64,000 nt of DNA from Bacteroidales bacterium (GCA_028280405.1 JANQLW010000022.1:64212-128211); one strand, 5' to 3'; shown: positions 17,930 through 56,817, counted from the stretch's first letter. Notes: generated by a model from the sequence alone, not told the origin. Numbers and translations are program-made.

Positions 17930-17938
17930 GTCTATATT

Positions 17939-26157: not shown

Positions 26158-26294
26158 TTTTTATATTATTGAAAGGGGGGGTGATCCCACCTAATATACA
26201 TTAAAATGGGGCGACACCCCTTACTTTCACCTTGTATTACCCCCTCTGTTCCGCTGAATAGCGAACCAGAGGGGAATAATGGAAAATGTGTTTA

Positions 26295-27740: not shown

Positions 27741-27748
27741 ACATCATT

Positions 27749-31051: not shown

Positions 31052-31286
31052 AATTTTACTTTGTTTTGGTGAATACGATGTATACTTTTATTTAATGTTT
31101 CGCCAGGACTTTTTGGCCGGGTTCTGTCTTCAGCGGAATCCGGTTTTATTTTGTCTGCCGGGGCCACCGGTTGGTGGAGCAGGCAGATCCTGACAATTCC
31201 TGAAAAAGTTCACTTCATCAGGCTATTATTGAATCAAGAGTCAGGTTTTTTTCATACGCTATATAATTGGTTTTACATTGGTAAAT

Positions 31287-32444: not shown

Positions 32445-32658
32445 TGTAAACCTAAAATAAGAATGCCCTTTCTTATATAGAGTCCATCGAAGATCAAAAA
32501 CCCTTAATTGGGGATGAAAAAAATTGGAAATCCATATTTTCGTAGTTATTGAAACCCTGCCAGGGTAACACTCATCATTACATTGCCATATTGAAACATA
32601 ATCCATATATTTGATTTTAAATAAAAAAACTCCATTAATCTTTAATAGCAATTAAGAA

Positions 32659-35190: not shown

Positions 35191-35760
35191 TCAAAGTAAC
35201 AAAAACATCCTGAAGCTATCCCCCATTTTCCCCCGGATTATTTTCAATGATTTGGTAAGATGAGCTTCCGCTGTCTTAATGGAGATATTGAGTTTTTTAG
35301 CAACCTGTTTCAAAGGTTGATCCATTAGTTTGTTATGGACAAAGACCAAACGGCATTTTTCGGGAAGGCGGGCTGAAAGTTTTTCAACCATTTCAAGCAA
35401 AAGACGGTCATCCATTACTGCTTCTTCATCAATACCAACCGATGCTTTTCTTTGCAGTTCATCTAAAGAAAGGAAGGAAGACTTTTGTTCCCGGGCAAGA
35501 TACCGGTACACTGCATAACGGGTCATGGCAGCCAGGTATTGCGGAAGGGAACGAATCTGAAGTGTGGTTCTTTTATTCCAAAGATTCAGGAAAACATCCT
35601 GCACGATCTCTTCGGAAGCTTCGGCCGATTTCAGGTGTTTGTGAGCCAAAAAATAAAGTTTATCCCAATAGTAATTATAGATCTGTTCAAAAGCATCTTC
35701 ATCTCCAAGCACTAAGCCGGAAAGCATTTCCTCTTCATTATATGAATTTGATGCTTTCAT
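35191..35760 (-). CDS. ECF-type RNA polymerase sigma-70 factor (presumed partner of the FecR at 31287-32444)
   Basis: 189 aa. Region 2 (EIVQDVFLNLW) and region 4 HTH (PLKQVAKKLNISIKTAEAHLTKSLKIIR) are present. Same strand as FecR/SusC/SusD of locus B. Confidence 0.9.
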   Translation of the reverse strand: MKASNSYNEEEMLSGLVLGDEDAFEQIYNYYWDKLYFLAHKHLKSAEASEEIVQDVFLNLWNKRTTLQIRSLPQYLAAMTRYAVYRYLAREQKSSFLSLDELQRKASVGIDEEAVMDDRLLLEMVEKLSARLPEKCRLVFVHNKLMDQPLKQVAKKLNISIKTAEAHLTKSLKIIRGKMGDSFRMFLLL

Positions 35761-38800: not shown

Positions 38801-41778
38801 TCCTTTTGTTCACTACTAATCTTAATACGTTCACTCTTTATCAGCTTACCTTTATTATGAAATTCATATAAAACAGATACATTGGGGGCTGAACTTCCAA
38901 TGATGAATGAACAATTATCACCTACATTAGCATTCGACTTTGCCGGAACAAACCAATTTAAGACAGGTAATGGCACTTTATCAGACTTAGGATCATAGAG
39001 GGTAAAATATTTTTCCAACTCAAGCTTTTCGTCAAATTGATCATAGGATTTCAAAATCATTTTATACATTCCATCTTCCCATCTGCTTAAACGGGGAATG
39101 GAAAAACCATTTACTTCACCGGTATTGATTTCGGCTTGAAATACCTGGTTTGCAATTTCCCATTTTTTATAATCTTTTTCATGATCATATTGCTCGTATG
39201 GAAAATGGCTGTAAAAAGTTTCTTTGTCCATTACAAATTGATCCGGTCTGTTTTTCTTTTTAGATTTTAAAGGCCTGTCAATATCTTTCAGTTTATAAAT
39301 ACCGATAGAAACATTTACATTTTGTTTTTGATCACTATAATTCGTAGCCTTTACCAAAAACTCTTCTTCGGTATGTTTATCAACATGTTTTGGAACTGAA
39401 CAGTCAAGCTTCAAATCGACTTCAGGTACAATAATACTTTTACCTGCCGATTGAGTTTCACCATTTATATCTGTAACATCAACACTTACATAATAGTTTG
39501 TAAAATTCAAAATTGGATGCGACGGATTTTCTGATGCTAAAAACCGGATTTCAAACCGACCCTTATCTGATGTCTTGGTTTCACCCTTCAGCCAAGGAAA
39601 TAGCTTGGACCGGACAGAATATTTTACCAAAGCATTACTTAATTCACTTCCGGAAAAAGATTTTACCGCACCTCTTACAATCACAGTATCATTAATTCTA
39701 AACTGTTCTTTCGGGTCATCAAATTGAATTTCAAAATTAGGCCTTTTGTATTCTTCAACCTGAAAAGCAATACTTCCATGAGGGGTTTTAAGCCTCATTT
39801 GTCCATTGAGCAAATTTAAAGGAAGTATAAACGATCCGTTAATTGAGCCATAGTCATTCGTTGTCTGACTTGTTTTTGAGACTGTTTGATTATTTACATC
39901 AATAAGGCTTACGGTAGTTTTATAATTCTTTAGAATTTTGTTTTCATTATTATGATTCTCAACAATAATTCCCTTATAATAGATAGTTTGGCCCGGGCGA
40001 TATATTTTTCTGTCAAGAAAGAAATGAGCCTTTAATTGAGGTCTCTGATTCTCCCTGATATAAAGAGGGTTTAAATCTGAAACCGATAGTGAATCTGATT
40101 GATATGAAAATTTAAAAAGATAATTATTTTTGCTTCTTTCATTCTGTATATGCAGGTAACCATTATGATCAGAAAACAGTTCTTCTTTCTTTTCCAAAGT
40201 AAATCCTCTTTCCCTGTAATTATAGGTTTTGTAAAATACTTCTAATTTCACATTGCTCATTGGTTCTCCGGATTTTCGGTTCTGAACATAAACATCCATT
40301 CCTTTCTTTCCATCATTTCTGCTTATAAAACTAATATGGGAAACCCAAAAGAAATTGGAATAAATTAGTTTCTTCTTTTCAAATTCAGGAGAGGTTGATG
40401 CCAGTAATACATAATACCCTTTATCTAATTCAGGGAAGAGTAATTTTACGGAATGTAAATTATAATCATGATCTTTAGGTAAATGCTGAATCCATTCTTC
40501 AGAAGCTTTCTGCTGTAAATAAAAATCCAACCTATTTGCCAATTGTTGATTGGAAAGCTTGTTTTGTTCATTTTCATAATTCAACTTTACAATTCTGAAG
40601 TAAAGCTCTTCCAAGTTTTTATACTTTAAAGTGGCTAATATTGGAGATTGAGGAACTTCCACTCCATTTATACTTACACTAACAGATGGAGCCTCCAAAG
40701 CCTTTTTTATTTCGCTGCAATATTTTGCACCTAAAGAATTGGGAAATCTGTATATGGTCTTTTTACAAACTTCCATAGCTTTAGTATTCTCAAGTTTATA
40801 TTCTTCACTGTTTACAGAAAAAGGATCATAACGCCTTCCTCTCTGGGTATAAACCAGTGCTTTTTCATATTGTACTTCTGCAGAAGACTCATGCCGAGGG
40901 AATACTGTTATCATTGAATTGAGCGCATTTAAATACGGAAGTTCATATTTTTCTTCATTAAGAAAGTATTTTCTCACATATTTCAACCTTTCCAGGTCAG
41001 CACCTATAAAAGCAGTTGGATTATGCCGGTGATTTTTTAGTAGCTTTTGAAATATTATTAGATTTTTATACAAGGGATGAACATATTTCAGGGTGTCTAT
41101 CCTTAGCTTTAAAAATTTATCCGCAGGAAGAAAATACGCTGTATTATTATTGCTAATAAAGTCTTTCGTAAAATAGTATTGAGAAGTTGATTTTATAGCT
41201 CTATAAGCCAATAGGTCAAATAGGCCTGGTCTGTATTTTCTGGTTGTAGAATCTCCTTTCAATACTTCATCCAAAACCTCTATTTTAATATTTCTAACGT
41301 TTTCAGTATTTCTTACAGCAACTGAAGCACTCCTTAATATTTCTTTCTCAAAGTTAAGAGTGGTCCAGGTATTAATATCTGTACTAGCTGTATTTAGCTT
41401 AGTTCTTTTAGAAATCTTCCAATGATTTTCACTAAAGTATTTTTGCAGAACTTCAGCCCGAATGGAATGTAATAATTGCCACCTTGGAGATTGGGCTACT
41501 TCAATCTCATTATCCACTAAACCGACAACTAAATTTATATCATAATCTTTATGAGATTTTAATAATTGAACTTTATAATTAAGAGCTTTAATATAATCAC
41601 CTAAATTATCATTCAATTTAGCCTCATTAAATAAGTCATTTATATCTGCCTCAGCTGTTTTTACCAAGCCTATTCTCATAAGTGAATCTACTCTGGTCCA
41701 TTTAGTAATTTCCTTTTGAGAATAAACTAAACTAAAGCTTAGGAATAATATAATGGTAAGAAGGTTTCTGCACTTCAT
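35869..41778 (-). CDS. Bacterial alpha-2-macroglobulin-family protein (very large, secreted), lacking the CxEQ thioester motif
   Basis: 1969 aa with a signal peptide. Contains the A2M bait-region-end signature (NFNETVFFYPTLYKNENGEYIISFKAPDALSKWKFMAL), a TED-like region (DGSWAWFKGGRSNRYITQSIL, YWYQSTVETQSMMLEAF) and a receptor-binding-like C-terminus (IQCMYAPEFNSHSEG). No Cys in the protein is followed by xEQ. Confidence 0.8.
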   Translation of the reverse strand: MKCRNLLTIILFLSFSLVYSQKEITKWTRVDSLMRIGLVKTAEADINDLFNEAKLNDNLGDYIKALNYKVQLLKSHKDYDINLVVGLVDNEIEVAQSPRWQLLHSIRAEVLQKYFSENHWKISKRTKLNTASTDINTWTTLNFEKEILRSASVAVRNTENVRNIKIEVLDEVLKGDSTTRKYRPGLFDLLAYRAIKSTSQYYFTKDFISNNNTAYFLPADKFLKLRIDTLKYVHPLYKNLIIFQKLLKNHRHNPTAFIGADLERLKYVRKYFLNEEKYELPYLNALNSMITVFPRHESSAEVQYEKALVYTQRGRRYDPFSVNSEEYKLENTKAMEVCKKTIYRFPNSLGAKYCSEIKKALEAPSVSVSINGVEVPQSPILATLKYKNLEELYFRIVKLNYENEQNKLSNQQLANRLDFYLQQKASEEWIQHLPKDHDYNLHSVKLLFPELDKGYYVLLASTSPEFEKKKLIYSNFFWVSHISFISRNDGKKGMDVYVQNRKSGEPMSNVKLEVFYKTYNYRERGFTLEKKEELFSDHNGYLHIQNERSKNNYLFKFSYQSDSLSVSDLNPLYIRENQRPQLKAHFFLDRKIYRPGQTIYYKGIIVENHNNENKILKNYKTTVSLIDVNNQTVSKTSQTTNDYGSINGSFILPLNLLNGQMRLKTPHGSIAFQVEEYKRPNFEIQFDDPKEQFRINDTVIVRGAVKSFSGSELSNALVKYSVRSKLFPWLKGETKTSDKGRFEIRFLASENPSHPILNFTNYYVSVDVTDINGETQSAGKSIIVPEVDLKLDCSVPKHVDKHTEEEFLVKATNYSDQKQNVNVSIGIYKLKDIDRPLKSKKKNRPDQFVMDKETFYSHFPYEQYDHEKDYKKWEIANQVFQAEINTGEVNGFSIPRLSRWEDGMYKMILKSYDQFDEKLELEKYFTLYDPKSDKVPLPVLNWFVPAKSNANVGDNCSFIIGSSAPNVSVLYEFHNKGKLIKSERIKISSEQKEINFPISQEIEGKLELTTNFVFENEVFRNSQSINVKDKNKELKILLETFRSKLKPGAQEEWKIKLISSDENIEAELLACMYDASLDKIRPNTWGLYLQKRRYPSLYWNSYNNFNMSSQGRNLNYRRYSMYFSEIKKSFEFLPLFYSFNTRQYLDVGSSPLKIRGMSNVKRIAGDELMDLQEIAGVPDTKMVPSIIPPMVELRKNFNETVFFYPTLYKNENGEYIISFKAPDALSKWKFMALLHTKDLRSDTVEKEVITQKELMVIPNIPRFFRQGDTLNFSAKLTNLNKNILKGKVELRLFNAVNNFELKKMNTGFPNVQSFIIEPSSSQSVQWKLIIPENVDAIKYKIHAVSDKHNDGEERIIPVLSKKKLVTKSLPLHLNPNQAKDFNFSSLLNSKKNRDIQHHQLKLEITANPNWYVIQALAAIDKIKGENSISLFNSFYANVMANHILQQNPKIKAVFEIWKKSSPDSFLSKLELNQDLKSALLEETPWVTEAQNDSERMHKLALYFNQNNLQQKLRDDLQKLLKLQLNDGSWAWFKGGRSNRYITQSILIGFVRLYKNNLLGNEYKTEVHVSIMKAFEYLNKKVKDNYQKLIDDEEDLKKDHLSNLQIQYLYALSYWLNNVKNDEDTEVAISFYLNQAQQFWMNKNNYLQAMIALILNRNGETQTAQTIIKSLSERAVTDEEMGVYWNQLTGYYWYQSTVETQSMMLEAFTELKASKKEITGLKKYLLKQKQTQMWNTQKASVEAVYALMLGDDQFLDDTELPYVRLGSSRVVFDKAEAGTSYAAKTWKGSIVDADMGKIHVKNPNSKMVWGAVHWQYFEDLDKISSYKSPISIEKNFYKKELTNAGPQLIPLDNSSNIHIGDKVVSRIIVKVDRDMEFIHLKDMRASAFEPLSIVSKYKYNGAVGYYESTKDAATHFYFDSLRKGTYVFEYEVVASQSGDFSNGISTIQCMYAPEFNSHSEGIRVKVQSLD

Positions 41779-41932: not shown

Positions 41933-43873
41933 TTACGAATCAATAAAATAAGGAAGGTATAAGTTTACGGCAGTGCCTCCGACACTCTCCGAAAGATCAG
42001 TAATATGGTAAACAGCATTTCTATCAAAGGACTTTGCATAAACTTTTAAACGTTCCTTGAGAATTTTTCCTGAAAGAGACTCATAGGATCTATTTTTGGT
42101 ACGGTTTTCCAAACCTTTATTATAGCCAATTCCATTATCAACAATTAAGCATTCAAGTAATTCGTCCTTTTCATGAAATCTAAACTCCATTTTTATCTCT
42201 GCATTACTTATCCCATTAAAACCGTGATTAATAGAGTTTTCAATGAAGGGCTGAATAAACATTGGAGGGATTAAAATTTCCTGAGGGTCAATCGTTTCAT
42301 CAATTATAATTGAATAAACAAAGCGGTTCGAAAAGTTAGATTGAAGCTCCAGGTAATCATTAAGTGCCTGTATTTCATCTTCCAGAGATATAAACTCTTC
42401 CCGTGAATTTTTCAAAATTAAACGAAGCAAACTGCTAAATTTTAGCACAAAAGGAACTGTTTTTTCAGATTTTGACTTTGCCAATCCACTAATTGAATTC
42501 AATGCATTAAAAATAAAATGTGGGTTTAGCTGTGAACGCAAAAGGCGCTGCTCCAGATTCACCAACCGGTACATATTTTTTAGCTTTCTTTGCCTGAATA
42601 CAAAGATTGTAATTGTAATAAGTAATAGAACCCCAAAACCTAAAATAAAATTAATGGTTTGCCGCTGTTTTAGGATGTAAGCTTGTGATTCATTTTGTTT
42701 TTCCAGTTCTTTAATGGAATTATCTTTTTCTTTTACTTCATAATAGGTTGTATATTCCTGAAACTGTTTAGCTATATTTTTTTCCTGGTATTCATTTAGG
42801 TAATAGATAAAATCATTTTTAACTCGTATTATGTTTTCAATATCATTGAGTTTTTGGTAGATTTTCACAAGATGTTGGCTGATAAGTTCAAACATATCCC
42901 TTTCATTTCTTGAAAAATCTTTGTCAGCATCCAGTTTATTATAAACCATCTGCAATAGTTCAAAAGCATCATCAAGTTTGTTTTCTTGGATTAATAAGTA
43001 TGCTTTACTAATTTGATTGCGGTAAGTTATTGTACCTTCTTTATAGTTCGTATCAAGATTATGATAATCATAATAGTCATTTGCTTTTTTGAAAAGCAGT
43101 TTTGCAGAATCAACACTCATTTCTCTTAAGTGTATATTCCCAATACTGTTTAGTGAATTAACAACATTGGCATGAATTCTATATTTGTAAAAGCTTCTGC
43201 TGTTCTTTGTTGTATCAGTATATGATTGAATTGATTTTCTTAAATAGTATTTGGCAGAATCCAAGTCGTTTTTATAAGAATATAAAATACCAATATTCTG
43301 ATTTAGATTGCCACTTGTATATTGATAGGACATATAGTTTTCAAACGGGAGTAACTTTAGTTTATACTTTAGTGATAAATTATAATCACCTAATCCTAAA
43401 TGAATAATAGAAATACGATGAATTATACTGGTTTCCCAATTGCTTTCTTCTTTCTCCGGATATTTTTTGGCATATTCCAAAGCTTTGTAGAGCGTTTCAA
43501 TGGATTTTAGTTTTTCATCATTAAAGTATTCATGTAAACCAATCATATAATAAGCTTTCGAAATGGCTTTTTGTGCAACATCAAAATCTTTTTCTTCATT
43601 TTCATATATCTCAATAACCTTTCTAGAATAAAATGCTGCTGAATCTCTTTCGAGTACCTTTAAAAATGCAAAGGCTTTAAAGGCATAGTATTTTGACCAT
43701 CCTTTCAATGATTGGTCAGATTCTAACATTTTTCTAATACTGTCAGCCTTTCTGTGTTTAACCCACATATAAGGTATTGTATCAATAGAAAGTTGGGTGA
43801 TTTTTTCATTTTGGGTAAAAATGTCAGGTGAGAAAATCAAACAAAGACAAGCAATCAAATAATATTTTTTCAT
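41933..43873 (-). CDS. Sensor histidine kinase of the LytS/YehU type (His_kinase + HATPase) with an N-terminal TPR-like extracytoplasmic domain
   Basis: 646 aa with a signal peptide, a TPR-like region of about 390 aa and one TM segment (INFILGFGVLLLITITIFVF). These are followed by LRSQLNPHFIFNALNSI and VDNGIGY. Confidence 0.8.
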   Translation of the reverse strand: MKKYYLIACLCLIFSPDIFTQNEKITQLSIDTIPYMWVKHRKADSIRKMLESDQSLKGWSKYYAFKAFAFLKVLERDSAAFYSRKVIEIYENEEKDFDVAQKAISKAYYMIGLHEYFNDEKLKSIETLYKALEYAKKYPEKEESNWETSIIHRISIIHLGLGDYNLSLKYKLKLLPFENYMSYQYTSGNLNQNIGILYSYKNDLDSAKYYLRKSIQSYTDTTKNSRSFYKYRIHANVVNSLNSIGNIHLREMSVDSAKLLFKKANDYYDYHNLDTNYKEGTITYRNQISKAYLLIQENKLDDAFELLQMVYNKLDADKDFSRNERDMFELISQHLVKIYQKLNDIENIIRVKNDFIYYLNEYQEKNIAKQFQEYTTYYEVKEKDNSIKELEKQNESQAYILKQRQTINFILGFGVLLLITITIFVFRQRKLKNMYRLVNLEQRLLRSQLNPHFIFNALNSISGLAKSKSEKTVPFVLKFSSLLRLILKNSREEFISLEDEIQALNDYLELQSNFSNRFVYSIIIDETIDPQEILIPPMFIQPFIENSINHGFNGISNAEIKMEFRFHEKDELLECLIVDNGIGYNKGLENRTKNRSYESLSGKILKERLKVYAKSFDRNAVYHITDLSESVGGTAVNLYLPYFIDS

Positions 43874-43948
43874 AAAAAGTATTTAAACATTAATTATTTT
43901 TGATAATTGTTTCTTAACAAGAAATATTTATCAATCCCCAATTTAACT

Positions 43949-44695
43949 ATGAACAGTCATATTCGAGCTGTAATTATTGAAGACGACATTGAATCACTAA
44001 ATTATTTATCTTCTATAATTGATAAGAGTTTTGATGAACTAAAAATTTGTGGTTACGCTAAAACTGTAAATGAAGGTATAAAGCTAATAAATAATTTCAA
44101 GCCGGAAATTGTATTTATGGATATTGAGCTGGAAGATGGAACTGCTTTTGAAATACTTGATAATATTGAGTCTCCTGACTTTGAAGTCATTTTCACTACA
44201 GCGTATAATGATTATTTTGAAAAGGCACTGGAACATTTTGCATTTTGTTATCTGTTAAAACCTATTGACGATAAAAAGCTTAGAAAAGTAATAGATCGAT
44301 ATACCAATGTTAAAAACCGTTTATTCTCTTTATCAAAATATGCATTGTATCAGGAATTTATTAGAGATAAAGATGCACGACTGCTTATTCATGCCGGAAA
44401 CAATCACATCGCAGTTAATCTTTCCGACATTATTTATTGTGAAGCCGATGGCAATTATACCATTTTCAAGCTTTGTGGTAACAAAAATGTCTTGGCTTCG
44501 AATACATTAAAGTATTATGAAGAACTTTTGAACCACAAGGCCTTTTTCAGGGCAAACAGGTTTACGCTTATTAATGTAAGGCATATTAGTAATATTTTCA
44601 AAAGAGAAACAATTGTTTTGAGTAATAAAAGCAAAATAAATGTATCTGTTAGAAATAAGTCTAAGCTTTCAGAGCTTATTTCTGAGCTTTCATAA
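43949..44695 (+). CDS. LytTR-family response regulator
   Basis: I placed the start at the ATG at 43949 (MNSHIRAVIIEDD). Receiver domain (PEIVFMDIELEDGTAFE) plus a C-terminal LytTR domain (IIYCEADGNYTIFKL...FFRANRFTLINVRHI). The listed TTG start at 43907 is less likely. Confidence 0.85.
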   Translation: MNSHIRAVIIEDDIESLNYLSSIIDKSFDELKICGYAKTVNEGIKLINNFKPEIVFMDIELEDGTAFEILDNIESPDFEVIFTTAYNDYFEKALEHFAFCYLLKPIDDKKLRKVIDRYTNVKNRLFSLSKYALYQEFIRDKDARLLIHAGNNHIAVNLSDIIYCEADGNYTIFKLCGNKNVLASNTLKYYEELLNHKAFFRANRFTLINVRHISNIFKRETIVLSNKSKINVSVRNKSKLSELISELS

Positions 44696-44735
44696 ATAAA
44701 CTTTTAAACAAAAATTTTTGAGGCTTCTTATGCAC

Positions 44736-44765
44736 TTAACGCTTATATCTCAAAAATTAACGTTT
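44736..44765 (+). promoter_or_regulatory. Candidate LytTR-regulator binding site: two 9-bp direct repeats with 21-bp periodicity
   Basis: ttaacgctt (44736-44744) and ttaacgttt (44757-44765) are separated by 12 nt. They lie 41 nt after the LytTR regulator stop and upstream of the lanthipeptide cluster. A near -7 box (TACTTTTT, 44788-44795) follows. Confidence 0.35.
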
Positions 44766-44964
44766 AAACTATAAATCCGGTGGCTCATACTTTTTTCAAC
44801 TTTTAATTCCTGAAAAAAAGATAATTTAACTCTTCGATTCACCATATTATCCCCCCCTAGCACAAGTGAATCTAAAGTAGTCAGGGAAGGCTCAGTGTAA
44901 GATTAAATTCAATTAATTAAGGGATTGATGAACTTGCTATTCTATTAGCAATAATAAACTTCAG

Positions 44965-45329
44965 ATGGAATACGAAATTAAAGAAAAGCTAAACGAGATT
45001 GCATACCTTTTGAAAAGCAATTATAAAACTATTGAAAACCCGGGATTGGCCGGTGGTAAATCAGGAATAGCCCATATATACAATCGAATGTATTCATATA
45101 CAAAAATTGAAAAGTTCAAGGAGATCTCAGATTTTTGGTACGGGAAAACACTGAAAATGGCAAAATATGAAGATGCTTATACCGAGTTTAAAACTGGTAA
45201 TCAGCCAATAAAGGATTTTGGTTCCCAAATCATAGTTTTCTGGAAGATATTTCCGGAATCGAATTGTCACTAATTACAGCAATTTCAAACGAAGAATCAA
45301 ATTGGGCCAAATGTTTTATGATTAACTAA
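44965..45329 (+). pseudogene. Remnant of a LanC-like cyclase gene (internal deletion plus frameshift)
   Basis: GGKSGIAHIYNRMYSYTKIEKFKEISDFWYGKTL parallels CHGANGIAQIYNRMFHYTGIDTFQTSAKYWYNKAL of the intact LanC. After a frameshift near 45230, another frame reads SFLEDISGIELSLITAISNEESNWAKCFMIN*, which parallels LLEGASGIGLSLISAISDIEPTWDSCLLLS*. Confidence 0.7.
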
Positions 45330-45549
45330 CAAAAAACCTCCTCAATAGAATGATGATTAATAAACACACAAATATTTTGTTAACCACTAAACTAGAAAGG
45401 AGGTATGTCAAAGATATGGATGTGATATAATTTATGCAAACTTAGTAATACGAAAAGTGAGCATAAAATATTTTGGAAAAAAGAGATATTATAAGGAGGT
45501 TGCTGAAAATCCATTGAAAGAGTAAGCTATAATAACAAATAATACAATT

Positions 45550-45735
45550 ATGAAAACTAAAAATTCAAAAAAATTAAAACTTAAAAAAAGAACTATTGCT
45601 AATCTTAACAAAGGAGCTATGAATAATTTGAAAGGTGGTGCACTTTCCGTTGGCTGTGTTTATACCTCAAATACAGGCGGAACGCACCCTCATCCTGGTT
45701 GCGATTTTGACCCTACAAGCAAAGAGTGTGAGTAA
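45550..45735 (+). CDS. Class I lanthipeptide precursor (LanA) with a Bacteroidota GG-type leader
   Basis: 61 aa. The leader MKTKNSKKLKLKKRTIANLNKGAMNNLKGG has hydrophobic residues at -4, -7, -12 and -15 relative to the GG. The core ALSVGCVYTSNTGGTHPHPGCDFDPTSKECE has 3 Cys and 7 Ser/Thr. It lies directly upstream of lanC/lanB. Confidence 0.85.
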   Translation: MKTKNSKKLKLKKRTIANLNKGAMNNLKGGALSVGCVYTSNTGGTHPHPGCDFDPTSKECE

Positions 45736-45761
45736 TAATACTATGATTTAAAGCATTCTCA

Positions 45762-45793
45762 CTCAAAGGCTCAATTAATATTGAGCCTTTGAG
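45762..45793 (+). terminator. Perfect 14-bp hairpin between lanA and lanC (candidate partial terminator or transcript stabiliser)
   Basis: ctcaaaggctcaat-taat-attgagcctttgag. It is followed by caaaaaa rather than a T-run, so it is not a canonical intrinsic terminator. Confidence 0.45.
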
Positions 45794-45811
45794 CAAAAAA
45801 CAATTCGTATT

Positions 45812-47020
45812 ATGAAATGGTCAAAATGTATTGATGATCAAAACAAACATATTTCTTTAAAGATAGATAAGATAGCCTTAGAATTAAATAGTTTAAAAAA
45901 TTTAAACGAAATAGGATTATTTATTGGCTTGAGTGGAATTTCACTGTTTAATTTTTACTACTCACGTTATAAAAACATCTCAAAGTATTCTGAATTAGGG
46001 TATAAATATATTCTAAAAATATTTGAGGCTATAAATGAAAAATCATTTGTCCACTCATTTTCATATGGCTTACCAGGTATAGGATGGTTGATTGAACATC
46101 TTATTGAATATGATTTCATCGAGGAGGAAAATAGGAATGTCCTTGAGGATATTGATAGTTTCATATTTGAGGATATGATGAAAGCACTTCAAACATCAAA
46201 CTATGACTATCTACATGGAGGGTTAGGTAACGCTATGTATTTATTGAATAGAAAAAACACGAATACTGTTAATAACTACCTGCATCAATTAGTTGATACT
46301 CTTCATGAAAAAAGCATTAAAGACACTAATGGTAGTATAAAATGGGTTTCAAAACCAAGTAATAACTCAAGCGAATCTGAATTTACTTATAACATTTCAT
46401 TATCTCATGGAATGTCGAGCCTTTTATTAATACTGTGTAAAATATACCACTTAAAAATAAACAAAAGAATTAGCAAGAAGCTCATAAGAGGCTGTGTTTT
46501 ATATATATTAAGTCAGAAATTTTGTTCAAGAGACTTCAATTCATTTTTCCCTAGCCTTTCTAAAGATAATAGTAAACCAAAACCTAGTAGATTGGCATGG
46601 TGCTATGGTGACCTGGGGATTTGTTTAGCAGTTTTCAAATCAGCTGAAATCTTAGATGATAATTCATTGAAAAAAGAAATAGTCAATTTGTTACAATTAT
46701 CCACACAAAGAAAAAGTCTTAAAAAAAATGGAGTTTATGATGCTGCGTTGTGTCATGGAGCTAATGGTATAGCACAAATATATAACAGAATGTTCCATTA
46801 TACAGGAATTGACACATTTCAAACTTCCGCAAAATATTGGTATAACAAAGCTTTGTCATTACCATATTATACAAAAGTAATTGAAAATAAACATGTTGAA
46901 TATTCAAATTTAACAAGAAAGTATAGTTTGCTTGAAGGAGCATCAGGTATTGGTTTAAGCCTTATTTCTGCCATATCAGACATAGAGCCTACATGGGATA
47001 GTTGTTTATTACTTAGCTAA
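45812..47020 (+). CDS. lanC: LanC-like lanthionine cyclase
   Basis: 402 aa. Repeated GxxG motifs of the alpha-toroid are present (GLSGISLF, GLPGIGW, GGLGNAMY, GMSSLL, GDLGI, GANGIA, GASGIGL). Zn-ligand contexts are WCYGDLG and LCHGANG. Confidence 0.9.
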   Translation: MKWSKCIDDQNKHISLKIDKIALELNSLKNLNEIGLFIGLSGISLFNFYYSRYKNISKYSELGYKYILKIFEAINEKSFVHSFSYGLPGIGWLIEHLIEYDFIEEENRNVLEDIDSFIFEDMMKALQTSNYDYLHGGLGNAMYLLNRKNTNTVNNYLHQLVDTLHEKSIKDTNGSIKWVSKPSNNSSESEFTYNISLSHGMSSLLLILCKIYHLKINKRISKKLIRGCVLYILSQKFCSRDFNSFFPSLSKDNSKPKPSRLAWCYGDLGICLAVFKSAEILDDNSLKKEIVNLLQLSTQRKSLKKNGVYDAALCHGANGIAQIYNRMFHYTGIDTFQTSAKYWYNKALSLPYYTKVIENKHVEYSNLTRKYSLLEGASGIGLSLISAISDIEPTWDSCLLLS

Positions 47021-47029: not shown

Positions 47030-49255
47030 ATGAATTCTGATAATAGATATAAATTCTTCAATAAATTTATTCTACGGACACCATTATTCCCATATAGTAC
47101 ATTAGATGCCATTATTTCAAAAAGGAATATTAGAGAAGAAGACTTAAAACAGATATGTTCAAACCCTTCATTTCAGGAAGCCATATTTCTGGCATCACCC
47201 GAGTTGTCAGCAGAAGTTAGTAAATGGCTAAATAAAGAACTTAGTGGCAAATCACAGAAAGCTATTGAAAAATTGCACTTTGCCGTTTTAAAATACTTGA
47301 TAAGGATGTCCACAAGATGTACTCCCTTTGGATTATTTGCAGGATTCTCTGTTGGACACTATGGCAGTGAAAACAATATCAAAACACCTGACCGATCAAC
47401 TTTTAAAAGACATACGCGCCTTGACATGAATTATCTATGTTCTTTAATTCAAGATATTTCACAAATTCCTGAGCTTAGAGAAACAACAAAATATTACCCC
47501 AACAATAGTATTTATTCTGTCGGAAATCAATTGCGGTATATAGAATACCATTATGAATATTCCCGGCGATTCCATCAAATTGTAGCAGTTGATTACTCAG
47601 AATACTTAAAAAAAATCCTCAGGAAATCATCGAACGGCGCATACATTGATGACTTAGCAACAGTACTCGTAAATGATGAGATTGAGTTCGAAGAAGCTAA
47701 AGAATTTGTAAATGAACTTATAGACGGGCAATTATTGGTCAATGAATTCGAACCCTCCATCACAGGAAAAGAATTCCTGGATCAGATATTGCAGATTTTA
47801 GAAAATATCAACAGCTCCAGCAAACTCAAAGAAGTCCTGATTCAAATTAAAAAAAAACTAGATGAAATTGATAGCAATGCAATTGGAACGACCTTATCAA
47901 AATATCACGAAATCGCGAATAATCTGAATTCTTTAGAAACAAAATACGATATCAAATTTCTGTTTCAAACAGATATGATAATCCCCTCACAAAATTTTAC
48001 ACTTAGCAAAGATATTCCAGTTCAAGTATTACAAGGCATTGAAGCATTAAACAAATTAACGCTACCACCTCCAACAACCTATCTTAAGCAGTTTAAAGAA
48101 GCTTTTTACGAGCGCTATGAAGATAGGGAAATGCCACTATTACACGTTTTAGATACGGAAGTAGGAATTGGATATATGCAAAATAATAATTCTGGAGATG
48201 TTTCTCTTTTGGCAGACAATATTTTTCTACCCAATTTAACAAGAAACCATACTTCTATAAATTGGACCGATATACATTCCTTCCTATTAAAAAAGATTAC
48301 TCAAGCTATTTCACAAAGTAAGCTTTCAATTGAAATTAAGGAAGATGAGTTGAAATCATTCAATTCCAATTGGGATGATATGCCTGATACTTTTTCAACT
48401 ATGGTGAATATTTTCGAAAATGGGAAAATATATATGAAAGAAGCCGGAGGTTCAAGCTCTACTAATCTATTGGGACGATTTTGTCACGCAGATGGAGAGT
48501 TATATAACTATGTCAAAGAGATTAAAGCTAAGGAAGAAGAACTAAATCCGGATAAAATCCTGGCTGAAATTGTGCATCTTCCGGAATCAAGAGTTGGGAA
48601 TATTCTTTTGCGGCCAGTATTAGGTGAATATGAAATTCCTTACCTGGCAAAATCATCAGTAAAAAAAGAAAATCGAATAGAGTTACAGGACCTGATGATT
48701 TCCGTGAAAAGAAATAGAGTTGTGTTACGATCCAAAAAATTAAACAAAGAAATTATTCCACGCCTGAGTACAGCTCACAATTACACTTCAAACGCCTTAC
48801 CGGTTTATCAATTTCTTTGCGATATGCAAAACCAGGAAATTAGAAGTGTTGTAGGATTTAATTGGCGAAGGTTTGAAATCGAATATCCCTTTCTACCAAG
48901 AATTGAATACAAAAATTTAATTCTATCACTGGCAACTTGGAATATCAAAAAAGAAGACATTGATGATATTCTTAATGCAAATTCTGATGACGAATTATAC
49001 AAGCAAATGGAAAATTTTAAACTTGAAAGGAAGTTACCTGATCTGGTCACTCTGGTTGATGGAGATAATAAACTACTGATTAATCTAAAAAATTTACTTT
49101 GCATTAAAACCCTTATAGCAACTATAAAAAATCGTAAAAATTTTATACTCACTGAATTTCTTTTCAATGCAAAAGATGGAATTGCAAAAGGGCCTGAAGG
49201 TATATTTACAAACCAATTTATAATCTCTTTTTACAAAACAACTAAACAGAACTGA
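47030..49255 (+). CDS. lanB: Lanthipeptide dehydratase, N-terminal glutamylation part of a split LanB
   Basis: 741 aa. N-terminus FILRTPLFPYS and overall size are typical of the Lant_dehydr_N family. Starts 9 nt after lanC. Confidence 0.85.
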   Translation: MNSDNRYKFFNKFILRTPLFPYSTLDAIISKRNIREEDLKQICSNPSFQEAIFLASPELSAEVSKWLNKELSGKSQKAIEKLHFAVLKYLIRMSTRCTPFGLFAGFSVGHYGSENNIKTPDRSTFKRHTRLDMNYLCSLIQDISQIPELRETTKYYPNNSIYSVGNQLRYIEYHYEYSRRFHQIVAVDYSEYLKKILRKSSNGAYIDDLATVLVNDEIEFEEAKEFVNELIDGQLLVNEFEPSITGKEFLDQILQILENINSSSKLKEVLIQIKKKLDEIDSNAIGTTLSKYHEIANNLNSLETKYDIKFLFQTDMIIPSQNFTLSKDIPVQVLQGIEALNKLTLPPPTTYLKQFKEAFYERYEDREMPLLHVLDTEVGIGYMQNNNSGDVSLLADNIFLPNLTRNHTSINWTDIHSFLLKKITQAISQSKLSIEIKEDELKSFNSNWDDMPDTFSTMVNIFENGKIYMKEAGGSSSTNLLGRFCHADGELYNYVKEIKAKEEELNPDKILAEIVHLPESRVGNILLRPVLGEYEIPYLAKSSVKKENRIELQDLMISVKRNRVVLRSKKLNKEIIPRLSTAHNYTSNALPVYQFLCDMQNQEIRSVVGFNWRRFEIEYPFLPRIEYKNLILSLATWNIKKEDIDDILNANSDDELYKQMENFKLERKLPDLVTLVDGDNKLLINLKNLLCIKTLIATIKNRKNFILTEFLFNAKDGIAKGPEGIFTNQFIISFYKTTKQN

Positions 49256-49260: not shown

Positions 49261-50169
49261 ATGGTTACCAATAAACGCACATTTATACCGGGAAACGAAT
49301 GGCTCTATTATAAAATTTATACCGGAGTTAAAACAGCTGATATGATTCTCACAGAGATAATCAAGCCTGTAACAGAGCATCTATTAGCCGATAAACTGAT
49401 AAATCAGTGGTTCTTTATTAGATATGCCGATCCTCATTCACACCTAAGACTTAGGTTTCATATTTCGGATCCTGGCAAGCTTGGAGACATCATACACTAT
49501 TTCAACCATTTCATAAAACCATTGATAGACCAGAATATCATCTGGAAAATTCAAACCGACACTTATCAAAGAGAAATTGAAAGATATGGTTTAAGCACCA
49601 TTCATCTTGCTGAAGAATTGTTTTACCATGACAGTACACTAATTACAAACACACTCGATTTAATTGAAGGGGTTGAAGGCGAGAAAATACGATGGTTGTT
49701 TAGCCTTCGAATGATGGACGAATTACTGGATGGTTTTAACTATAGCCTGGAAGAAAAAATGAAGCTACTGAACCATCTGGCTATGGGATTCGGAAAGGAA
49801 TTTGGCATTAACTCAGGTTTAATAAAACAGTTAAGTAATAAATACCGCAACGAAAAAAAAGAAATATCCACGGTACTAAATAGAAACCTGGACAAAGACA
49901 ACGAGATGCTTCCGCTTTTCGAATTGCTAAATACCAAAAGCGAATTGTCACAAAAAGCAATTGCCGGGATATTGAATGCAAAAACCAAAAATGAGTTAAA
50001 TATTCCGTTGGACAACTTGCTTGGAAGCCTCATACATATGATGTTGAATCGTTTGTTCAGATCAAAGCAAAGATTACATGAAATGGTTTTATACGGATTT
50101 CTGTTCAGGTATTACAAATCTGAAATAGCAAAACTTAAATATCAAAAGAAGCAATTCGTTCCGGTATAA
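49261..50169 (+). CDS. SpaB_C / thiopeptide-type bacteriocin biosynthesis domain protein (glutamate-elimination part of a split LanB)
   Basis: 302 aa. The signature EWLYYKIYTG...WFFIRYADPHSHLRLRFH is typical of this family. Starts 5 nt after the previous gene. Confidence 0.85.
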   Translation: MVTNKRTFIPGNEWLYYKIYTGVKTADMILTEIIKPVTEHLLADKLINQWFFIRYADPHSHLRLRFHISDPGKLGDIIHYFNHFIKPLIDQNIIWKIQTDTYQREIERYGLSTIHLAEELFYHDSTLITNTLDLIEGVEGEKIRWLFSLRMMDELLDGFNYSLEEKMKLLNHLAMGFGKEFGINSGLIKQLSNKYRNEKKEISTVLNRNLDKDNEMLPLFELLNTKSELSQKAIAGILNAKTKNELNIPLDNLLGSLIHMMLNRLFRSKQRLHEMVLYGFLFRYYKSEIAKLKYQKKQFVPV

Positions 50170-50188: not shown

Positions 50189-52393
50189 ATGAAAAAAAGA
50201 TTTCCTGCATATAAACAACTGGATGCCATGGATTGTGGTCCTTCATGTTTGAAGATCATAGCCCAATACTATGGGAAATTTTTCTCGCTTCAAAGCTTGA
50301 GAGAAAAATGCAGCATTAACAGAGAAGGAGTTTCTTTACTTGGCATCAGTGATGCTGCCGAATTGATTGGTTTTCGCACGGTGGGATCCAGAATTGATTT
50401 TGAAAAATTAAAAGATGAAGTTCCCTTGCCTTGTATTGCACACTGGAATCAACGGCACTTTGTTGTGATATACGATATTAAGTCCAAAAAAGGTGAAGAC
50501 ATGATTTGCATATCCGATCCGGCACATGGAAAAGTAAAATATAGCAAAAAAGAGTTTTTAAAGGCTTGGGCAAGTACTGTAAATAACAACAAAGAAGAGG
50601 GGGTGGTTTTAATGCTGGAACCAACACCGGATTTCTTTAAACAAGAAGACGAACAACTTAATAAAAAAAGTTTCAGGTTTCTGTTTTCTTACCTGAAACC
50701 TCATAAAAGATATTTGTTTCAACTTGTGCTGGGGTTGATATTGGGAAGCTTGCTCCAACTTATCTTCCCGTTTCTAACACAATCTATTGTTGATATCGGT
50801 ATTAATAATCAAGATTTAGGATTTATAACCCTGATATTAATTGCCCAACTTGTTTTATTTATTAGCCAAACCAGTGTCGAATTTATCAGAAGCTGGATTT
50901 TACTACACATCAGTACCCGCATCAATGTTTCACTTATATCCGATTTCTTAATAAAACTAATGAAGCTGCCCATTGGTTTTTTTGATCAAAAAATGATTGG
51001 CGACCTCATGCAAAGAATCAGTGATCACACACGTATTGAATCATTTTTAACCGGATCATCACTTCAGATATTATTTGCCTTTGTGAACCTGATCATCTTT
51101 GCCATTGTATTGGGTATTTATAGTCTGAAAATATTGCTAATTTTTCTTATTGGTTCAGCTTTGTATGCTGCTTGGGTGTCTGTTTTTATGAAAAAAAGAC
51201 GGGAAATTGATTACAAAAGATTTTCTCAAATGGCCGATAATCAAAGTAATCTGATACAATTGATCAATGGGATACAAGAAATCAAGCTTAACAATTGTGA
51301 AAAGCAAAAAAGATGGGACTGGGAACGCATACAGGCAAAGTTGTTTCGCGTAAATATAGGGGGGCTTGCCTTGAATCAATATCAACAAGCCGGTGGAGCA
51401 TTTTTTAATCAAACCAAAAATATTCTGATCACTTTCATAGCGGCCCAGTCTGTTGTAAAAGGTGATATCACATTGGGGATGATGCTTGCCATACAGTATA
51501 TCATCGGACAATTAAATGCTCCGATTGAACAGATGATAAACTTTGTCCGTTCGGCACAGGATGCAAAAATAAGTTTAGAGCGTTTAGGGGAAATTCATTT
51601 GAAAGATGAGGAGGAAAATCCCAATGAAAGCAAACTATCAGAACTTCCAATCAAAAAAGACATCACCATTAGCAATCTCTTTTTTCAATATGACGGGCCA
51701 AATTCAGAATTTGTGTTAAACAGCCTGAATTTACTCATTCCTGAAAACAAAATTACCGCTATTGTTGGCAGCAGCGGAAGCGGTAAAACAACACTTTTGA
51801 AGCTCTTACTGGGGTTTTATCCTCCTGTAAAGGGAGATATTAAAATCGATAAAATTCAAATAGCAAATATTACCGGAAAAGTTTGGCGGTCAAGTATTGG
51901 GGCAGTTATGCAGGATGGCTATATTTTTTCGGATACCATTGCACAAAATATCGCTATCAGCGACGAACATATTGATAAAAATAAGCTGCTTAATGCTGTT
52001 GAAGTTGCAAACATCAGAGAATATATTGAATCCCTTCCCTTAGGCTTTAATACAAAAATTGGCCAAGAGGGTATAGGCTTAAGCCAGGGTCAAAAACAAC
52101 GAATTCTCATTGCTCGTGCAGTATATAAAAATCCGGATATTATTTTCTTTGATGAAGCCACAAATGCCCTTGATGCCAATAATGAAAAAATCATCATGCA
52201 AAACCTGAATGAATTCTTTAAAGGGAAAACAGTAGTGGTGGTTGCACACCGTTTAAGTACTGTCAAAAACGCCGATCAGATTGTAGTTCTCGAAAAAGGA
52301 AAAATCATTGAAAAAGGAAATCATAAAGAATTGAGCACACAAAAAGGAGCATACTTTGAGTTAGTAAAAAACCAATTAGAATTAGGAAATTAA
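50189..52393 (+). CDS. lanT: Bacteriocin/lanthipeptide ABC exporter with an N-terminal C39 double-glycine peptidase domain (LanT type)
   Basis: 734 aa. C39 catalytic context (QLDAMDCGPSCL, IAHWNQRHFVV, ISDPA), six-helix TMD, Walker A (GSSGSGKTT), ABC signature (LSQGQKQR), Walker B (IIFFDEAT). Confidence 0.9.
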   Translation: MKKRFPAYKQLDAMDCGPSCLKIIAQYYGKFFSLQSLREKCSINREGVSLLGISDAAELIGFRTVGSRIDFEKLKDEVPLPCIAHWNQRHFVVIYDIKSKKGEDMICISDPAHGKVKYSKKEFLKAWASTVNNNKEEGVVLMLEPTPDFFKQEDEQLNKKSFRFLFSYLKPHKRYLFQLVLGLILGSLLQLIFPFLTQSIVDIGINNQDLGFITLILIAQLVLFISQTSVEFIRSWILLHISTRINVSLISDFLIKLMKLPIGFFDQKMIGDLMQRISDHTRIESFLTGSSLQILFAFVNLIIFAIVLGIYSLKILLIFLIGSALYAAWVSVFMKKRREIDYKRFSQMADNQSNLIQLINGIQEIKLNNCEKQKRWDWERIQAKLFRVNIGGLALNQYQQAGGAFFNQTKNILITFIAAQSVVKGDITLGMMLAIQYIIGQLNAPIEQMINFVRSAQDAKISLERLGEIHLKDEEENPNESKLSELPIKKDITISNLFFQYDGPNSEFVLNSLNLLIPENKITAIVGSSGSGKTTLLKLLLGFYPPVKGDIKIDKIQIANITGKVWRSSIGAVMQDGYIFSDTIAQNIAISDEHIDKNKLLNAVEVANIREYIESLPLGFNTKIGQEGIGLSQGQKQRILIARAVYKNPDIIFFDEATNALDANNEKIIMQNLNEFFKGKTVVVVAHRLSTVKNADQIVVLEKGKIIEKGNHKELSTQKGAYFELVKNQLELGN

Positions 52394-52398: not shown

Positions 52399-53703
52399 AT
52401 GCCTTTAAACCAATTTGAAATACGGACTGAAGAAATCAATGAGATACTAGGAAAAACTCCCAACAGGATTATTCGTTGGGGAATTAGTGTATTCTTCATT
52501 GTTATTCTTCTTCTACTGGTTAGCAGTTATTTTTTTAAGTATCCTGATTTTATTACTTCTACTATTGAAATAACAACAACGATCCCACCATCTGAAATCA
52601 AAGCTACAAGCGGTGGAAAGATTGAGAAATTATTTGTAGATGATATGCAATTGGTAAGTAAAGGGGAATATTTAGCGTTGATTGAAAACACAGCTAATTA
52701 TGATCACGTAAAAAAACTAATCTCTTTTGTGAATTCAATCTCAGATAGTAATCCTATCAAAAATTTTGATGCTATAAGATCTTTTTTGCAATCGGCTGAT
52801 ATGATACTTGGCGATTTGCAACCATACCTGGCAAACTTTAAATACAATTTCAAAGAATACGAAAATTACCTGACTCTTTCATATCATGTAAAAAGAATTG
52901 TTGCGATTAAAAAACAAATAGCGGATCGAAAGAACTATAAAACCTTATCTGAAAAACAATTGAAAAGCTTAACGCTTGAATTTGATTTAACCCAAAAAGA
53001 GCTTAATCGATTTAAAGGATTGTATGAGGAAAAAATTGTTGCCGAAAGCGAATACGAAAAAATTGAAGCCAACTACTACAAAAAAAAATACAGTTTAGAA
53101 GGGTTTACCGCAAGACTGGCTGAAATCGATAGCGAAATTATGCGTTTACAAAATGACATTACTGACCTAGAACTTCAAAATCAAATTCAGCAAAATCAAC
53201 TCGAAAATAAATTACAGAAATCATTCAATGAGCTTCAAAATCAAATAAAATCCTGGGAACTGAAATATGTGTTGAAATCCCCAATAAAAGGGAAATGCTC
53301 ATTCACAAAGATTTGGAACGTTAATCAAAACGTAAAAACAGGAAAAACCGTATTAACAATCGTACCCTCTAACGATCAGCAAATAATTGGTAAACTTTTA
53401 TTACCGGTTCAAGGGTCGGGCAAGGTAAAAAAAGGACAAAAACTAAATATAAAGCTTTTCAATTATCCATTCATGGAATATGGTATGCTGTTAGGCAGAA
53501 TTGAAAACATATCGCTAGTACCTGAAGAAAATTACTACTCCGTAGAGGTTGCTCTTATAAATGGCTTAACTACCAATTACAAAAAAGAATTGAACTTCCA
53601 TCAAAAGATGCAAGGAACGGCGGAAATTATAACAGAAGAAAGAAGACTGATTGAACGGGTAATATCACCCCTTAAATCCTTAATCAAGAATAAATCCTAC
53701 TAA
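52399..53703 (+). CDS. HlyD-family membrane fusion / secretion adaptor protein
   Basis: 434 aa with an N-terminal TM segment, a long coiled-coil central region and a beta-barrel C-terminus. Starts 5 nt after the ABC exporter. Confidence 0.8.
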   Translation: MPLNQFEIRTEEINEILGKTPNRIIRWGISVFFIVILLLLVSSYFFKYPDFITSTIEITTTIPPSEIKATSGGKIEKLFVDDMQLVSKGEYLALIENTANYDHVKKLISFVNSISDSNPIKNFDAIRSFLQSADMILGDLQPYLANFKYNFKEYENYLTLSYHVKRIVAIKKQIADRKNYKTLSEKQLKSLTLEFDLTQKELNRFKGLYEEKIVAESEYEKIEANYYKKKYSLEGFTARLAEIDSEIMRLQNDITDLELQNQIQQNQLENKLQKSFNELQNQIKSWELKYVLKSPIKGKCSFTKIWNVNQNVKTGKTVLTIVPSNDQQIIGKLLLPVQGSGKVKKGQKLNIKLFNYPFMEYGMLLGRIENISLVPEENYYSVEVALINGLTTNYKKELNFHQKMQGTAEIITEERRLIERVISPLKSLIKNKSY

Positions 53704-56700: not shown

Positions 56701-56817
56701 AAACATATCCAGCACATAAAATTTAGGTTTATTGTGATCAATTTCCGCTTTGAAAGTTTTTTTCTCGCTCCAATACTTTTGCCATTTAGGCTCAATTTCT
56801 AAAAAATTGTAATCCAT
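53725..56817 (-). CDS. leuS: Leucine--tRNA ligase (1030 aa, unusually long)
   Basis: HIGH motif (HVGHPLG), editing-domain block (TTRPDTMFG), KMSKS at residues 804-808 and a typical C-terminal domain. It carries an extra segment of about 125 aa before KMSKS. Confidence 0.95.

Follow-up and report, generated by a model that had tools for sequence, protein, structure and literature searches.

Pinensins A and B, from Chitinophaga pinensis, are the first class I lanthipeptides of Bacteroidota (Mohr et al. 2015, as cited in PMC7268733), and they bind zinc at nanomolar affinity, with two histidines, His1 and His12, as the probable ligands (PMC13532221). For the class I systems of Bacteroidetes, Walker et al. 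(2020; PMC7268733) described an LxLxKx5L leader motif, leaders with GG ends, C39 proteases, a split LanB, and LanC proteins that resemble the cyclase domains of LanM. Two products of this kind have been characterised by mass spectrometry, ChmA from Chryseobacterium sp. OV715 and RuiA from Runella limosa, each with seven dehydrations and three thioether rings, and their modification depends on a Bacteroidota GluRS/tRNA(Glu) pair (Lee et al.; PMC9993889). The class I lanthipeptides of Pedobacter lusitanus NL19 have GG leaders, whose removal by LahT150 has been described (Caetano 2020 and Bothwell 2021, as cited in PMC9576775 and PMC12328550). In the GG leaders that it cleaves, LahT150 reads positions -4 and -7, and it has been applied to a class I lanthipeptide from Pedobacter (PMC12328550).

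We have analysed a stretch of 64,000 nucleotides, hereafter the window, from a Bacteroidales bacterium (GCA_028280405.1, JANQLW010000022.1:64212-128211), in which a short ORF, here called lanA, had been read in the initial annotation as a RiPP precursor, in which a double-glycine leader is followed by a Cys/Ser/Thr-rich core that would serve as a lanthipeptide substrate. That reading is borne out by leader HMMs and by the genes that lie downstream, which encode LanC, a LanB in two halves, a C39-peptidase ABC exporter and an HlyD-type adaptor (Table 1). In all likelihood, lanA is the structural gene of a Bacteroidota class I lanthipeptide cluster of the split-LanB, double-glycine-leader type.

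Table 1. Positions of the cluster genes, of the parts of lanA and of neighbouring elements, counted from the first nucleotide of the window (L001 and L003 are the most closely related clusters)
Feature	Positions	Strand	Description	Evidence
TPR-containing LytS-type histidine kinase	41933-43873	-	divergent from the response regulator; possible regulator, weakly linked	PF06580
LytTR response regulator	43907-44695	+	cluster orientation; possible regulator, weakly linked	PF00072, PF04397
Decayed second lanC	44965-45326	+	pseudogene	tblastn with the LanC of the window and those of L001 and L003
lanA	45550-45735	+	very probable class I lanthipeptide precursor, 61 aa; stop codon included	translation, NF038153, TIGR04149, PF28317
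Leader peptide	45550-45639	+	residues 1-30; LxLxKx5L motif, G29-G30 end	NF038153
Predicted core	45640-45732	+	ALSVGCVYTSNTGGTHPHPGCDFDPTSKECE; 31 aa, 3 Cys, 7 Ser/Thr, 2 His, net acidic	
Stem-loop	45762-45793	+	perfect, 14 bp; 27 nt past the lanA stop; followed by CAAAAAAC, not a U-tract	
LanC cyclase	45812-47020	+	402 aa	PF05147, 5e-46
LanB glutamylation protein	47030-49255	+	741 aa; first half of the split dehydratase	PF04738, 7e-152, full-length profile
LanB glutamate-elimination protein	49261-50169	+	302 aa; second half of the split dehydratase	PF14028, 3e-73; TIGR03891, 4e-72
LanT	50189-52393	+	C39-peptidase ABC exporter, 734 aa	PF03412, PF00664, PF00005
HlyD-type periplasmic adaptor	52399-53703	+	434 aa	PF13437; TIGR01843, 3e-35, below curated cut-off

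The precursor gene and its leader

The lanA ORF translates as MKTKNSKKLKLKKRTIANLNKGAMNNLKGGALSVGCVYTSNTGGTHPHPGCDFDPTSKECE followed by a stop codon, in exact agreement with the peptide given in the initial annotation, and divides into a lysine-rich leader of 30 residues, MKTKNSKKLKLKKRTIANLNKGAMNNLKGG, and the predicted core, ALSVGCVYTSNTGGTHPHPGCDFDPTSKECE. The leader ends in LKGG at residue 30, and L27, M24, L19 and I16 do stand at -4, -7, -12 and -15, as had been proposed. The further proposal, that this hydrophobic spacing is the pattern of C39 double-glycine leaders, is upheld by the family to which LanA belongs: these four positions are hydrophobic in 97, 91, 97 and 83%, respectively, of 35 GG-ending family leaders, and no other column from -3 to -16 is hydrophobic in more than 17% of them. 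The LxLxKx5L motif is found in LanA as L9-K-L11-K-K13-RTIAN-L19. Our census of the family comprises 39 further precursors, 40 with LanA; of the 40 leaders, 35 have GG at the end site fixed by the HMM alignment, and the LxLxKx5L motif occurs in its strict form in 28 and in a relaxed form in 39.

Curated leader models place LanA in the same class. The class I lanthipeptide model NF038153 (lant_leader_L1a), whose cut-off is 22 bits, gives 29.1 bits, with residues 1-30 of LanA aligned onto model positions 1-32 of 32, and PF28317 (Lant_leader_dom) is precomputed on a database protein (P0001) identical to LanA. The start of the peptide had initially been likened to the GG-Bacteroidales leader class, with an alignment to TIGR04149-type leaders suggested as a check; this model indeed matches residues 6-43 at 27.9 bits, above its cut-off of 25, but the leader is better filed as L1a under NF038153 and PF28317, and a radical-SAM maturase is absent from its vicinity. 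When all 2,413 stop-to-stop segments of the window were searched with a family leader HMM, lanA was the sole match, its score of 54.4 bits being partly circular because the model was built from eight related leaders that include LanA's own; no further precursor was detected in the window by this search.

Two readings of lanA other than that of a lanthipeptide precursor have to be weighed against these scores. The gene has only 61 codons, and neither a Shine-Dalgarno sequence nor a consensus promoter was identified for it (the exact Bacteroidetes -7 consensus TAnnTTTG is absent from 44600-45560, and a sigma-70 promoter scan performed no better than on shuffles), so that it might be taken for a chance ORF in an intergenic region; yet two independent curated HMMs, NF038153 and TIGR04149, exceed their cut-offs, lanA lies 76 bp upstream of lanC just as precursors do in related loci, and the best other leader-like segment of the window reaches 7.6 bits as against 54.4, by which the notion of a chance ORF is effectively refuted already. 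The TIGR04149 score, taken together with the clear relatedness of the two leader classes, would also be compatible with a radical-SAM-modified RiPP of the GG-Bacteroidales class, acted upon by a radical-SAM/SPASM enzyme instead of LanB and LanC, but it is the lanthipeptide leader model NF038153 that scores higher, and the direct neighbours of lanA are LanC and LanB, the nearest radical-SAM gene being some 36-37 kb away. The latter gene (7968-8984) is the only one of its kind in the window; its product has a Radical_SAM_C domain and no match to the SPASM domain, and it adjoins DUF6873. The ORFs of at least 150 aa that lie between 9 kb and 64 kb include no radical-SAM gene. We have rejected the radical-SAM assignment, since there is no adjacent maturase, and consider it highly improbable; the class I lanthipeptide precursor is the reading that we retain.

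The predicted core and the enzymes encoded downstream

The extent of the 31-residue core and the position of its reactive residues are as initially annotated, that is, Cys at 36, 51 and 60 and Ser/Thr at S33, T39, S40, T42, T45, T56 and S57. Judged against the proteome of the window itself (0.67% Cys), three Cys in 31 residues are unexpected by chance (p = 0.0012); Ser/Thr are at least as numerous as Cys (7 versus 3), as they also are in 37 of the 39 other family cores. The predicted core has a monoisotopic mass of 3208.354 Da unmodified, and of 3082.280 Da after seven dehydrations. The initial annotation had drawn attention to the Ser/Thr that lie 3-9 residues upstream of every Cys and had concluded that three non-overlapping rings could form (S33-C36, T42/T45-C51 and T56/S57-C60). 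The first point is true of this core but also of 42% of shuffled cores, which is chance level, and the second is allowed by the layout but is likewise possible in 17% of shuffled cores. Because the Ser/Thr-to-Cys spacing lies within chance, the three-ring topology is one possible arrangement, to which the statistics lend no support.

The core had also been singled out as unusual, which is appropriate for its distinctive HPHPG segment but not for its internal GG, shared in kind by 13 of the 39 family cores, nor for its acidity, which is normal in a family whose cores contain 9.9% acidic versus 3.7% basic residues. With family medians of 34 residues, 4 Cys and 6 Ser/Thr, the LanA core is compositionally typical, and the HPHPG segment alone is unique to it. 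No homologue of the core was found in a word index of 5.8 billion proteins or by phmmer run against the whole set of 1.84 billion representatives, both of which returned leader-level relatives only (P0123, P0125 and P0127). Two other matches in the search for core homologues, P0124 and P0126, were discarded as spurious. An orphan core is normal for a hypervariable precursor family; as the core has no homologue, conservation cannot confirm which of its residues matter. Both published lipid II-binding motifs (PMC7268733), SxxxCTP(G/S)C of nisin and gallidermin and TxTxEC of mersacidin, are absent from the core, in which the closest approach to TxTxEC is T56-S-K-E-C60, one residue shorter.

Downstream of lanA and on the same strand, LanC follows after a gap of 76 bp, and then the LanB glutamylation protein, the LanB elimination protein, LanT and HlyD, with gaps of 5-19 bp. 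All five ORFs are full length. The split of LanB is apparent from PF04738 and PF14028/TIGR03891, which match separate adjacent ORFs, each over the full profile. LanC has its catalytic His and its Cys/Cys-His zinc ligands in place: H199, C264 and C314-H315 are conserved in an alignment to MadC (8BYK) and NisC (2G0D), where they coincide with the NisC motifs LAHG, AWCYG and ICHG and their MadC counterparts; the protein also matches the LanM cyclase domain model TIGR03897 (3e-29). The glutamylation protein matches MadB (9G04) at 7e-52, and its R96, T98-P99-F100-G101, D132, D315 and R483 occupy invariant columns of the family alignment A1; R96, T98, D132, D315 and R483 are putative counterparts of the catalytic residues R87, T89, D121, D299 and R464 of NisB. 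In the elimination protein, R65 and R108 align with two arginines of NisB (R786 and R826, if numbered from the start of the alignment), and H259 aligns with the histidine of the MadB motif IIHLNCNR and is presumably equivalent to NisB H961, completing the Arg/Arg/His set of the elimination domain. LanT has the architecture of a PCAT/AMS transporter, with Q10, C16, H90 and D110 in its C39 domain and GSSGSGKT, LSQGQ and FFDEA as Walker A, signature and Walker B motifs of its ATPase; among solved structures, LahT150 (6MPZ, 4e-23) is the closest to the C39 domain. Judged by the residues of LanC, of the elimination protein and of the C39 domain, the maturation enzymes look competent. An outer-membrane channel, an immunity gene and a tRNA(Glu) gene were looked for in the window and not found, nor does the window contain any other tRNA gene.

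A maturation route can be proposed from this set of genes. The leader, through its LxLxKx5L motif, would dock the precursor on the dehydratase, whereupon the 741-aa LanB protein would glutamylate Ser/Thr of the core at the expense of glutamyl-tRNA(Glu), and the separate 302-aa protein would eliminate glutamate to leave Dha and Dhb. LanC, a zinc enzyme, would join the three Cys thiols to dehydro residues, for an outcome of at most three (methyl)lanthionine rings and at most four leftover dehydro residues. The C39 domain of LanT would recognise the leader by its hydrophobic -4/-7/-12/-15 face and cut the precursor after G29-G30, and LanT would export the 31-residue product in concert with the HlyD adaptor and a channel of the outer membrane that is encoded outside the cluster.

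Both the place of cleavage and the extent of modification admit other readings. The core has a GG dipeptide of its own at G43-G44, and a cut at this site would release the 17-residue THPHPGCDFDPTSKECE (1898.756 Da unmodified); because Ser40 would then stand at -4 and Gly29 at -15, with no fit to the C39 recognition pattern, and because such dipeptides are common in family cores, we regard cleavage at G43-G44 as very unlikely. Both curated leader models, moreover, end or fade at G30, and the Ser/Thr upstream of G43 would be dehydrated and locked in rings, unlike the helical leader that a C39 domain reads. As for modification, the peptide might be exported and GG-cleaved and yet not be a lanthipeptide, or be one only in part, in which case it would be a disulfide-containing or linear bacteriocin-like product, either of a silent or decaying cluster or of enzymes that refuse this core. 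In favour of such an outcome are the neighbouring lanC, which already is a pseudogene, the orphan core and the Ser/Thr-Cys spacing, which gives specific rings no statistical support; it is opposed by five full-length downstream ORFs in which every checked catalytic residue is intact, by a core composition typical of the family, and by the two related Bacteroidota systems whose peptides have been shown to be dehydrated and cyclised, and we assign it a low, though not a vanishing, probability.

Flanking elements and related loci

The stem-loop between lanA and lanC lies in an 83-nt stretch (45733-45815) with a minimum free energy of -24.5 kcal/mol (z = -7.1), a stability that none of 200 shuffles attains, and hairpins with z < -3 occur within 80 nt downstream of 18 of the 40 family precursors. 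A terminator scan found no canonical terminator. The stem-loop is probably an attenuator or a transcript stabiliser; it fits the classic arrangement for an excess of precursor mRNA over enzyme mRNA, and would probably raise the former relative to the latter.

Upstream, what is left of the decayed second lanC is a stub of some 25 residues from the N-terminus joined to the C-terminal third of the protein, with Ala-Gly in place of the Cys-His zinc ligands. The pseudogene includes a 102-codon ORF (44965-45273), has a frameshift near 45200 after which the frame runs on to about 45326, and scores 21.9 bits against PF05147, below the cut-off; its decay implies some erosion of the locus. A six-frame reading of 44690-44970 disclosed no decayed lanA upstream of this pseudogene. 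The order lanC-lanA-lanC-lanB is also that of locus L003. By GC content there is no signal of horizontal transfer, the cluster having 30-36%, the same as its flanks. Further upstream lies the kinase/regulator pair. A regulator 37-52% identical to the LytTR protein stands beside a histidine kinase at three of the 85 related loci that we compared (L058, L059 and L072), and the only candidate for LytTR-type repeats is a 10-nt repeat, AAATATTTTG, with a spacing of 96 bp between its copies, the usual form being a 9-bp repeat at about 21 bp.

Relatives of the glutamylation protein are plentiful: more than 2,800 of 8,000 candidates scored fall below E = 1e-20, and in species-representative genomes a relative of the dehydratase is present in at least 587 stretches. 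Most named records belong to Flavobacteriaceae (Aquimarina, Kordia, Sinomicrobium, Tenacibaculum), to Bacteroidales-labelled MAGs and to Lentimicrobiaceae, and a few to Aminicenantes or other MAGs; a scan of GTDB representatives yielded no locus of more than 52% identity. Within the stretches fetched around dehydratase relatives at 85 loci, the elimination protein was counted at 82, LanC at 69, the C39 exporter at 34 and HlyD at 28, in all 28 cases together with LanT. The closest clusters, L001 and L003 (62% LanB identity), have a near-identical leader, MKTKKLSLNKKTIANLNDDAMNSVKGG, and cores that are rich in Cys, Ser and Thr and unrelated to the core of LanA.

Since pinensins bind zinc through histidines, we have also considered that the mature peptide may be a metal-binding lanthipeptide, a scavenger or withholding agent for zinc or copper and not a conventional antibiotic, perhaps under the control of the LytTR pair. 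The putative site could be formed by the H46-P-H48-P-G loop beside the ring of C51, together with the acidic tail (D52, D54, E59 and E61). Two His in the 31 residues of the LanA core are not a significant number, however, the cores of the family show no clear enrichment in His (2.4% versus 1.7% in the background), and the kinase/regulator pair occurs at only three of the 85 related clusters. We hold this speculative function to be improbable; were the HPHPG segment and the acidic core to bind metals as pinensins do, interest in the locus would rise.

Significance and comparison with described systems

The locus is a further class I lanthipeptide cluster that looks complete; it comes from an uncultured lineage akin to Bacteroidales, and its core had not been seen before. 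Clusters of this type are well described in Bacteroidota. The novelty is confined to the sequence of the mature peptide, and our understanding of such systems is left unchanged. By its LeuRS, whose relatives carry the labels Bacteroidales or Lentimicrobium at 66-72% identity, the source stands near uncultured Bacteroidales or Lentimicrobium-like bacteria. This origin is of modest note, since LanB was absent from all 1,136 cultured Bacteroidales genomes surveyed in 2023 (PMC10352776), a notability tempered by the many Bacteroidales-labelled MAGs that carry such clusters. LanA is, at the same time, a ready candidate for heterologous production, because recipes for Bacteroidota exist, namely co-expression of the cognate GluRS/tRNA(Glu) and removal of the leader by LahT150.

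Several well-characterised systems share parts of this machinery. Thiopeptide split dehydratases (TbtB/TbtC; 6EC7) likewise consist of separate glutamylation and elimination proteins, and the elimination protein of the window matches TIGR03891, a model named for thiopeptide-type bacteriocin biosynthesis; in contrast with thiopeptide systems, the window has no YcaO/azoline or [4+2] cyclase genes and does have a LanC, and the match to TbtB is weak (2e-06). NisB/NisC and MadB/MadC of maddinglicin (4WD9, 2G0D, 9G04, 8BYK) belong to the same enzyme families, with the LanC His and Cys/Cys-His residues and the Arg/Arg/His of the elimination domain in common. The dehydratases NisB and MadB are single polypeptides, however, whereas the LanB of the window is split. 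The leader of nisin is of the FNLD type and is removed by the subtilisin-like protease NisP, and is not a GG leader cut by a C39 domain. LahT150 (6MPZ) and PCAT1 (4RY2) share the Gln/Cys/His/Asp motifs with LanT, and recognition depends on hydrophobic residues at -4 and -7 of the leader; they come from class II lanthipeptide or bacteriocin systems of Firmicutes, whereas the C39 domain of the window belongs to a class I system of a diderm and is accompanied by HlyD.

Closer likenesses are found within the phylum. The Pedobacter lusitanus NL19 peptides are, by their description, also Bacteroidota class I lanthipeptides with GG leaders. ChmA and RuiA are Bacteroidota class I lanthipeptides whose measured dehydrations and rings are equal in number to those that the LanA core would allow with its seven Ser/Thr and three Cys, although their core sequences differ and their products have been characterised by mass spectrometry. 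The cluster is a pinensin-type Bacteroidota class I lanthipeptide cluster. By the searches for core homologues, the core of LanA is unrelated to that of the pinensins, and antifungal activity and zinc binding have been shown for the pinensins only; what the two have in common is a class I system of Bacteroidota in which LanB is split into a glutamylation and an elimination protein, a LanC, and histidine in the core.

Upstream of lanA

The stretch directly 5' of lanA, the 61-aa class I lanthipeptide precursor gene of the window, holds the remains of a second lanC, in which the C-terminal third of the protein is joined to about 25 N-terminal residues, apparently as the result of a deletion between repeated GxxG motifs. 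This copy carries LAGG in place of the LCHG zinc ligands and a frameshift near 45200; its closest likeness is the first of two LanCs in L003, one of the 85 loci compared around relatives of the window's LanB dehydratase, and the gene order lanC - lanA - lanC is common to that locus and the window. Between the decayed gene and lanA lie two copies of a 10-nt direct repeat, AAATATTTTG, with a spacing of 96 bp, each followed after about 18 nt by AAGGAGGT. The pair may represent a duplicated promoter-like module. It does not match the Bacteroidetes -7 consensus, TAnnTTTG, exactly.

Positions of features in the window and in related loci
Feature	Location	Strand	Remark
DUF6873 and radical-SAM genes	window 7310-8984	-	32-nt overlap
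Paralogous modules	window 14953-23286, 24770-32651
ECF sigma factor	window 22705-23286
ECF sigma factor, second	window 35191-35760
Alpha-2-macroglobulin homologue	window 35869-41778	-	1,969 aa
TPR/LytS-type histidine kinase	window 41933-43873	-	divergent from LytTR response regulator
LytTR response regulator	window 43907-44695	+	just upstream of lanthipeptide cluster
Decayed second lanC	window 44965-45326	+	directly 5' of lanA
AAATATTTTG copies	window 45370-45379, 45466-45475
AAGGAGGT copies	window 45398-45405, 45495-45502
LeuRS	window 53725-56817
L001 precursors	4845-5042, 5350-5532, 7539-7745
L075 hairpin	386-450		3' of precursor
Aquimarina precursors with common core pattern	L015 3370-3766, L019 3492-3665, L025 252-419, L032 3402-3575, L040 719-886

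Regulators and other genes of the window

The divergent histidine kinase and LytTR regulator genes are separated by 33-75 bp, and a similar divergent pair adjoins the lanthipeptide genes in three of the 85 related loci (L058, L059 and L072), whose regulators share 37-52% identity with that of the window. The recurrence of such a pair beside lanthipeptide genes hints at occasional dedicated regulation. On its other side the kinase gene adjoins that of a very large bacterial alpha-2-macroglobulin homologue, which has no evident link to the lanthipeptide cluster.

Elsewhere, a SusC-like TonB-dependent receptor carrying STN and CarboxypepD_reg domains is encoded in each of two paralogous modules, together with a SusD-like protein, a FecR anti-sigma factor and a thioredoxin-like protein of the AhpC/TSA kind. 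The window has a single radical-SAM gene, whose product has a Radical_SAM_C domain; this gene overlaps the DUF6873 gene and is unrelated to the lanthipeptide cluster. Among close database relatives of the window's LeuRS, several proteins of 1167-1181 aa (P0131, P0135, P0136, P0139 and P0226) are longer by about 140 residues and bear additional PF04480 and PF18741 domains, which suggests that the LeuRS gene of related bacteria carries an endonuclease-like insertion; the LeuRS of the window is without it.

Related clusters and their precursors

A 2023 survey reported no LanB genes among 1,136 cultured Bacteroidales genomes (PMC10352776). Among MAGs, many with the label Bacteroidales, Prevotellaceae or Lentimicrobiaceae have split-LanB clusters (e.g. 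loci L009, L011, L013, L076 and L082). A few matches come from MAGs with the labels Clostridia, Aminicenantes, Thiohalospira or Hyphomicrobiales, and these matches could reflect either binning errors or horizontal transfer.

Stem-loops follow the precursor gene in 18 members of the 40-precursor family, the most extreme being a perfect palindromic 30-bp hairpin in L075, from a Bacteroidales MAG (MFE -39.9 kcal/mol, z = -13). As to the cores, the Aquimarina clusters share a short conserved pattern, SS(V/T)PPT...C...(H/F)(G/P)G.PC..., within 25-29 residues that include one or two Cys, and these form a recognisable core subfamily, whereas the core of the window is an orphan. The closest related cluster, L001 (GCA_942491975.1), has three precursors that combine nearly identical leaders with completely unrelated cores, a combinatorial layout that recalls the prochlorosins; in this cluster lanC is separated from the third lanA by an inserted PDDEXK_3 gene.
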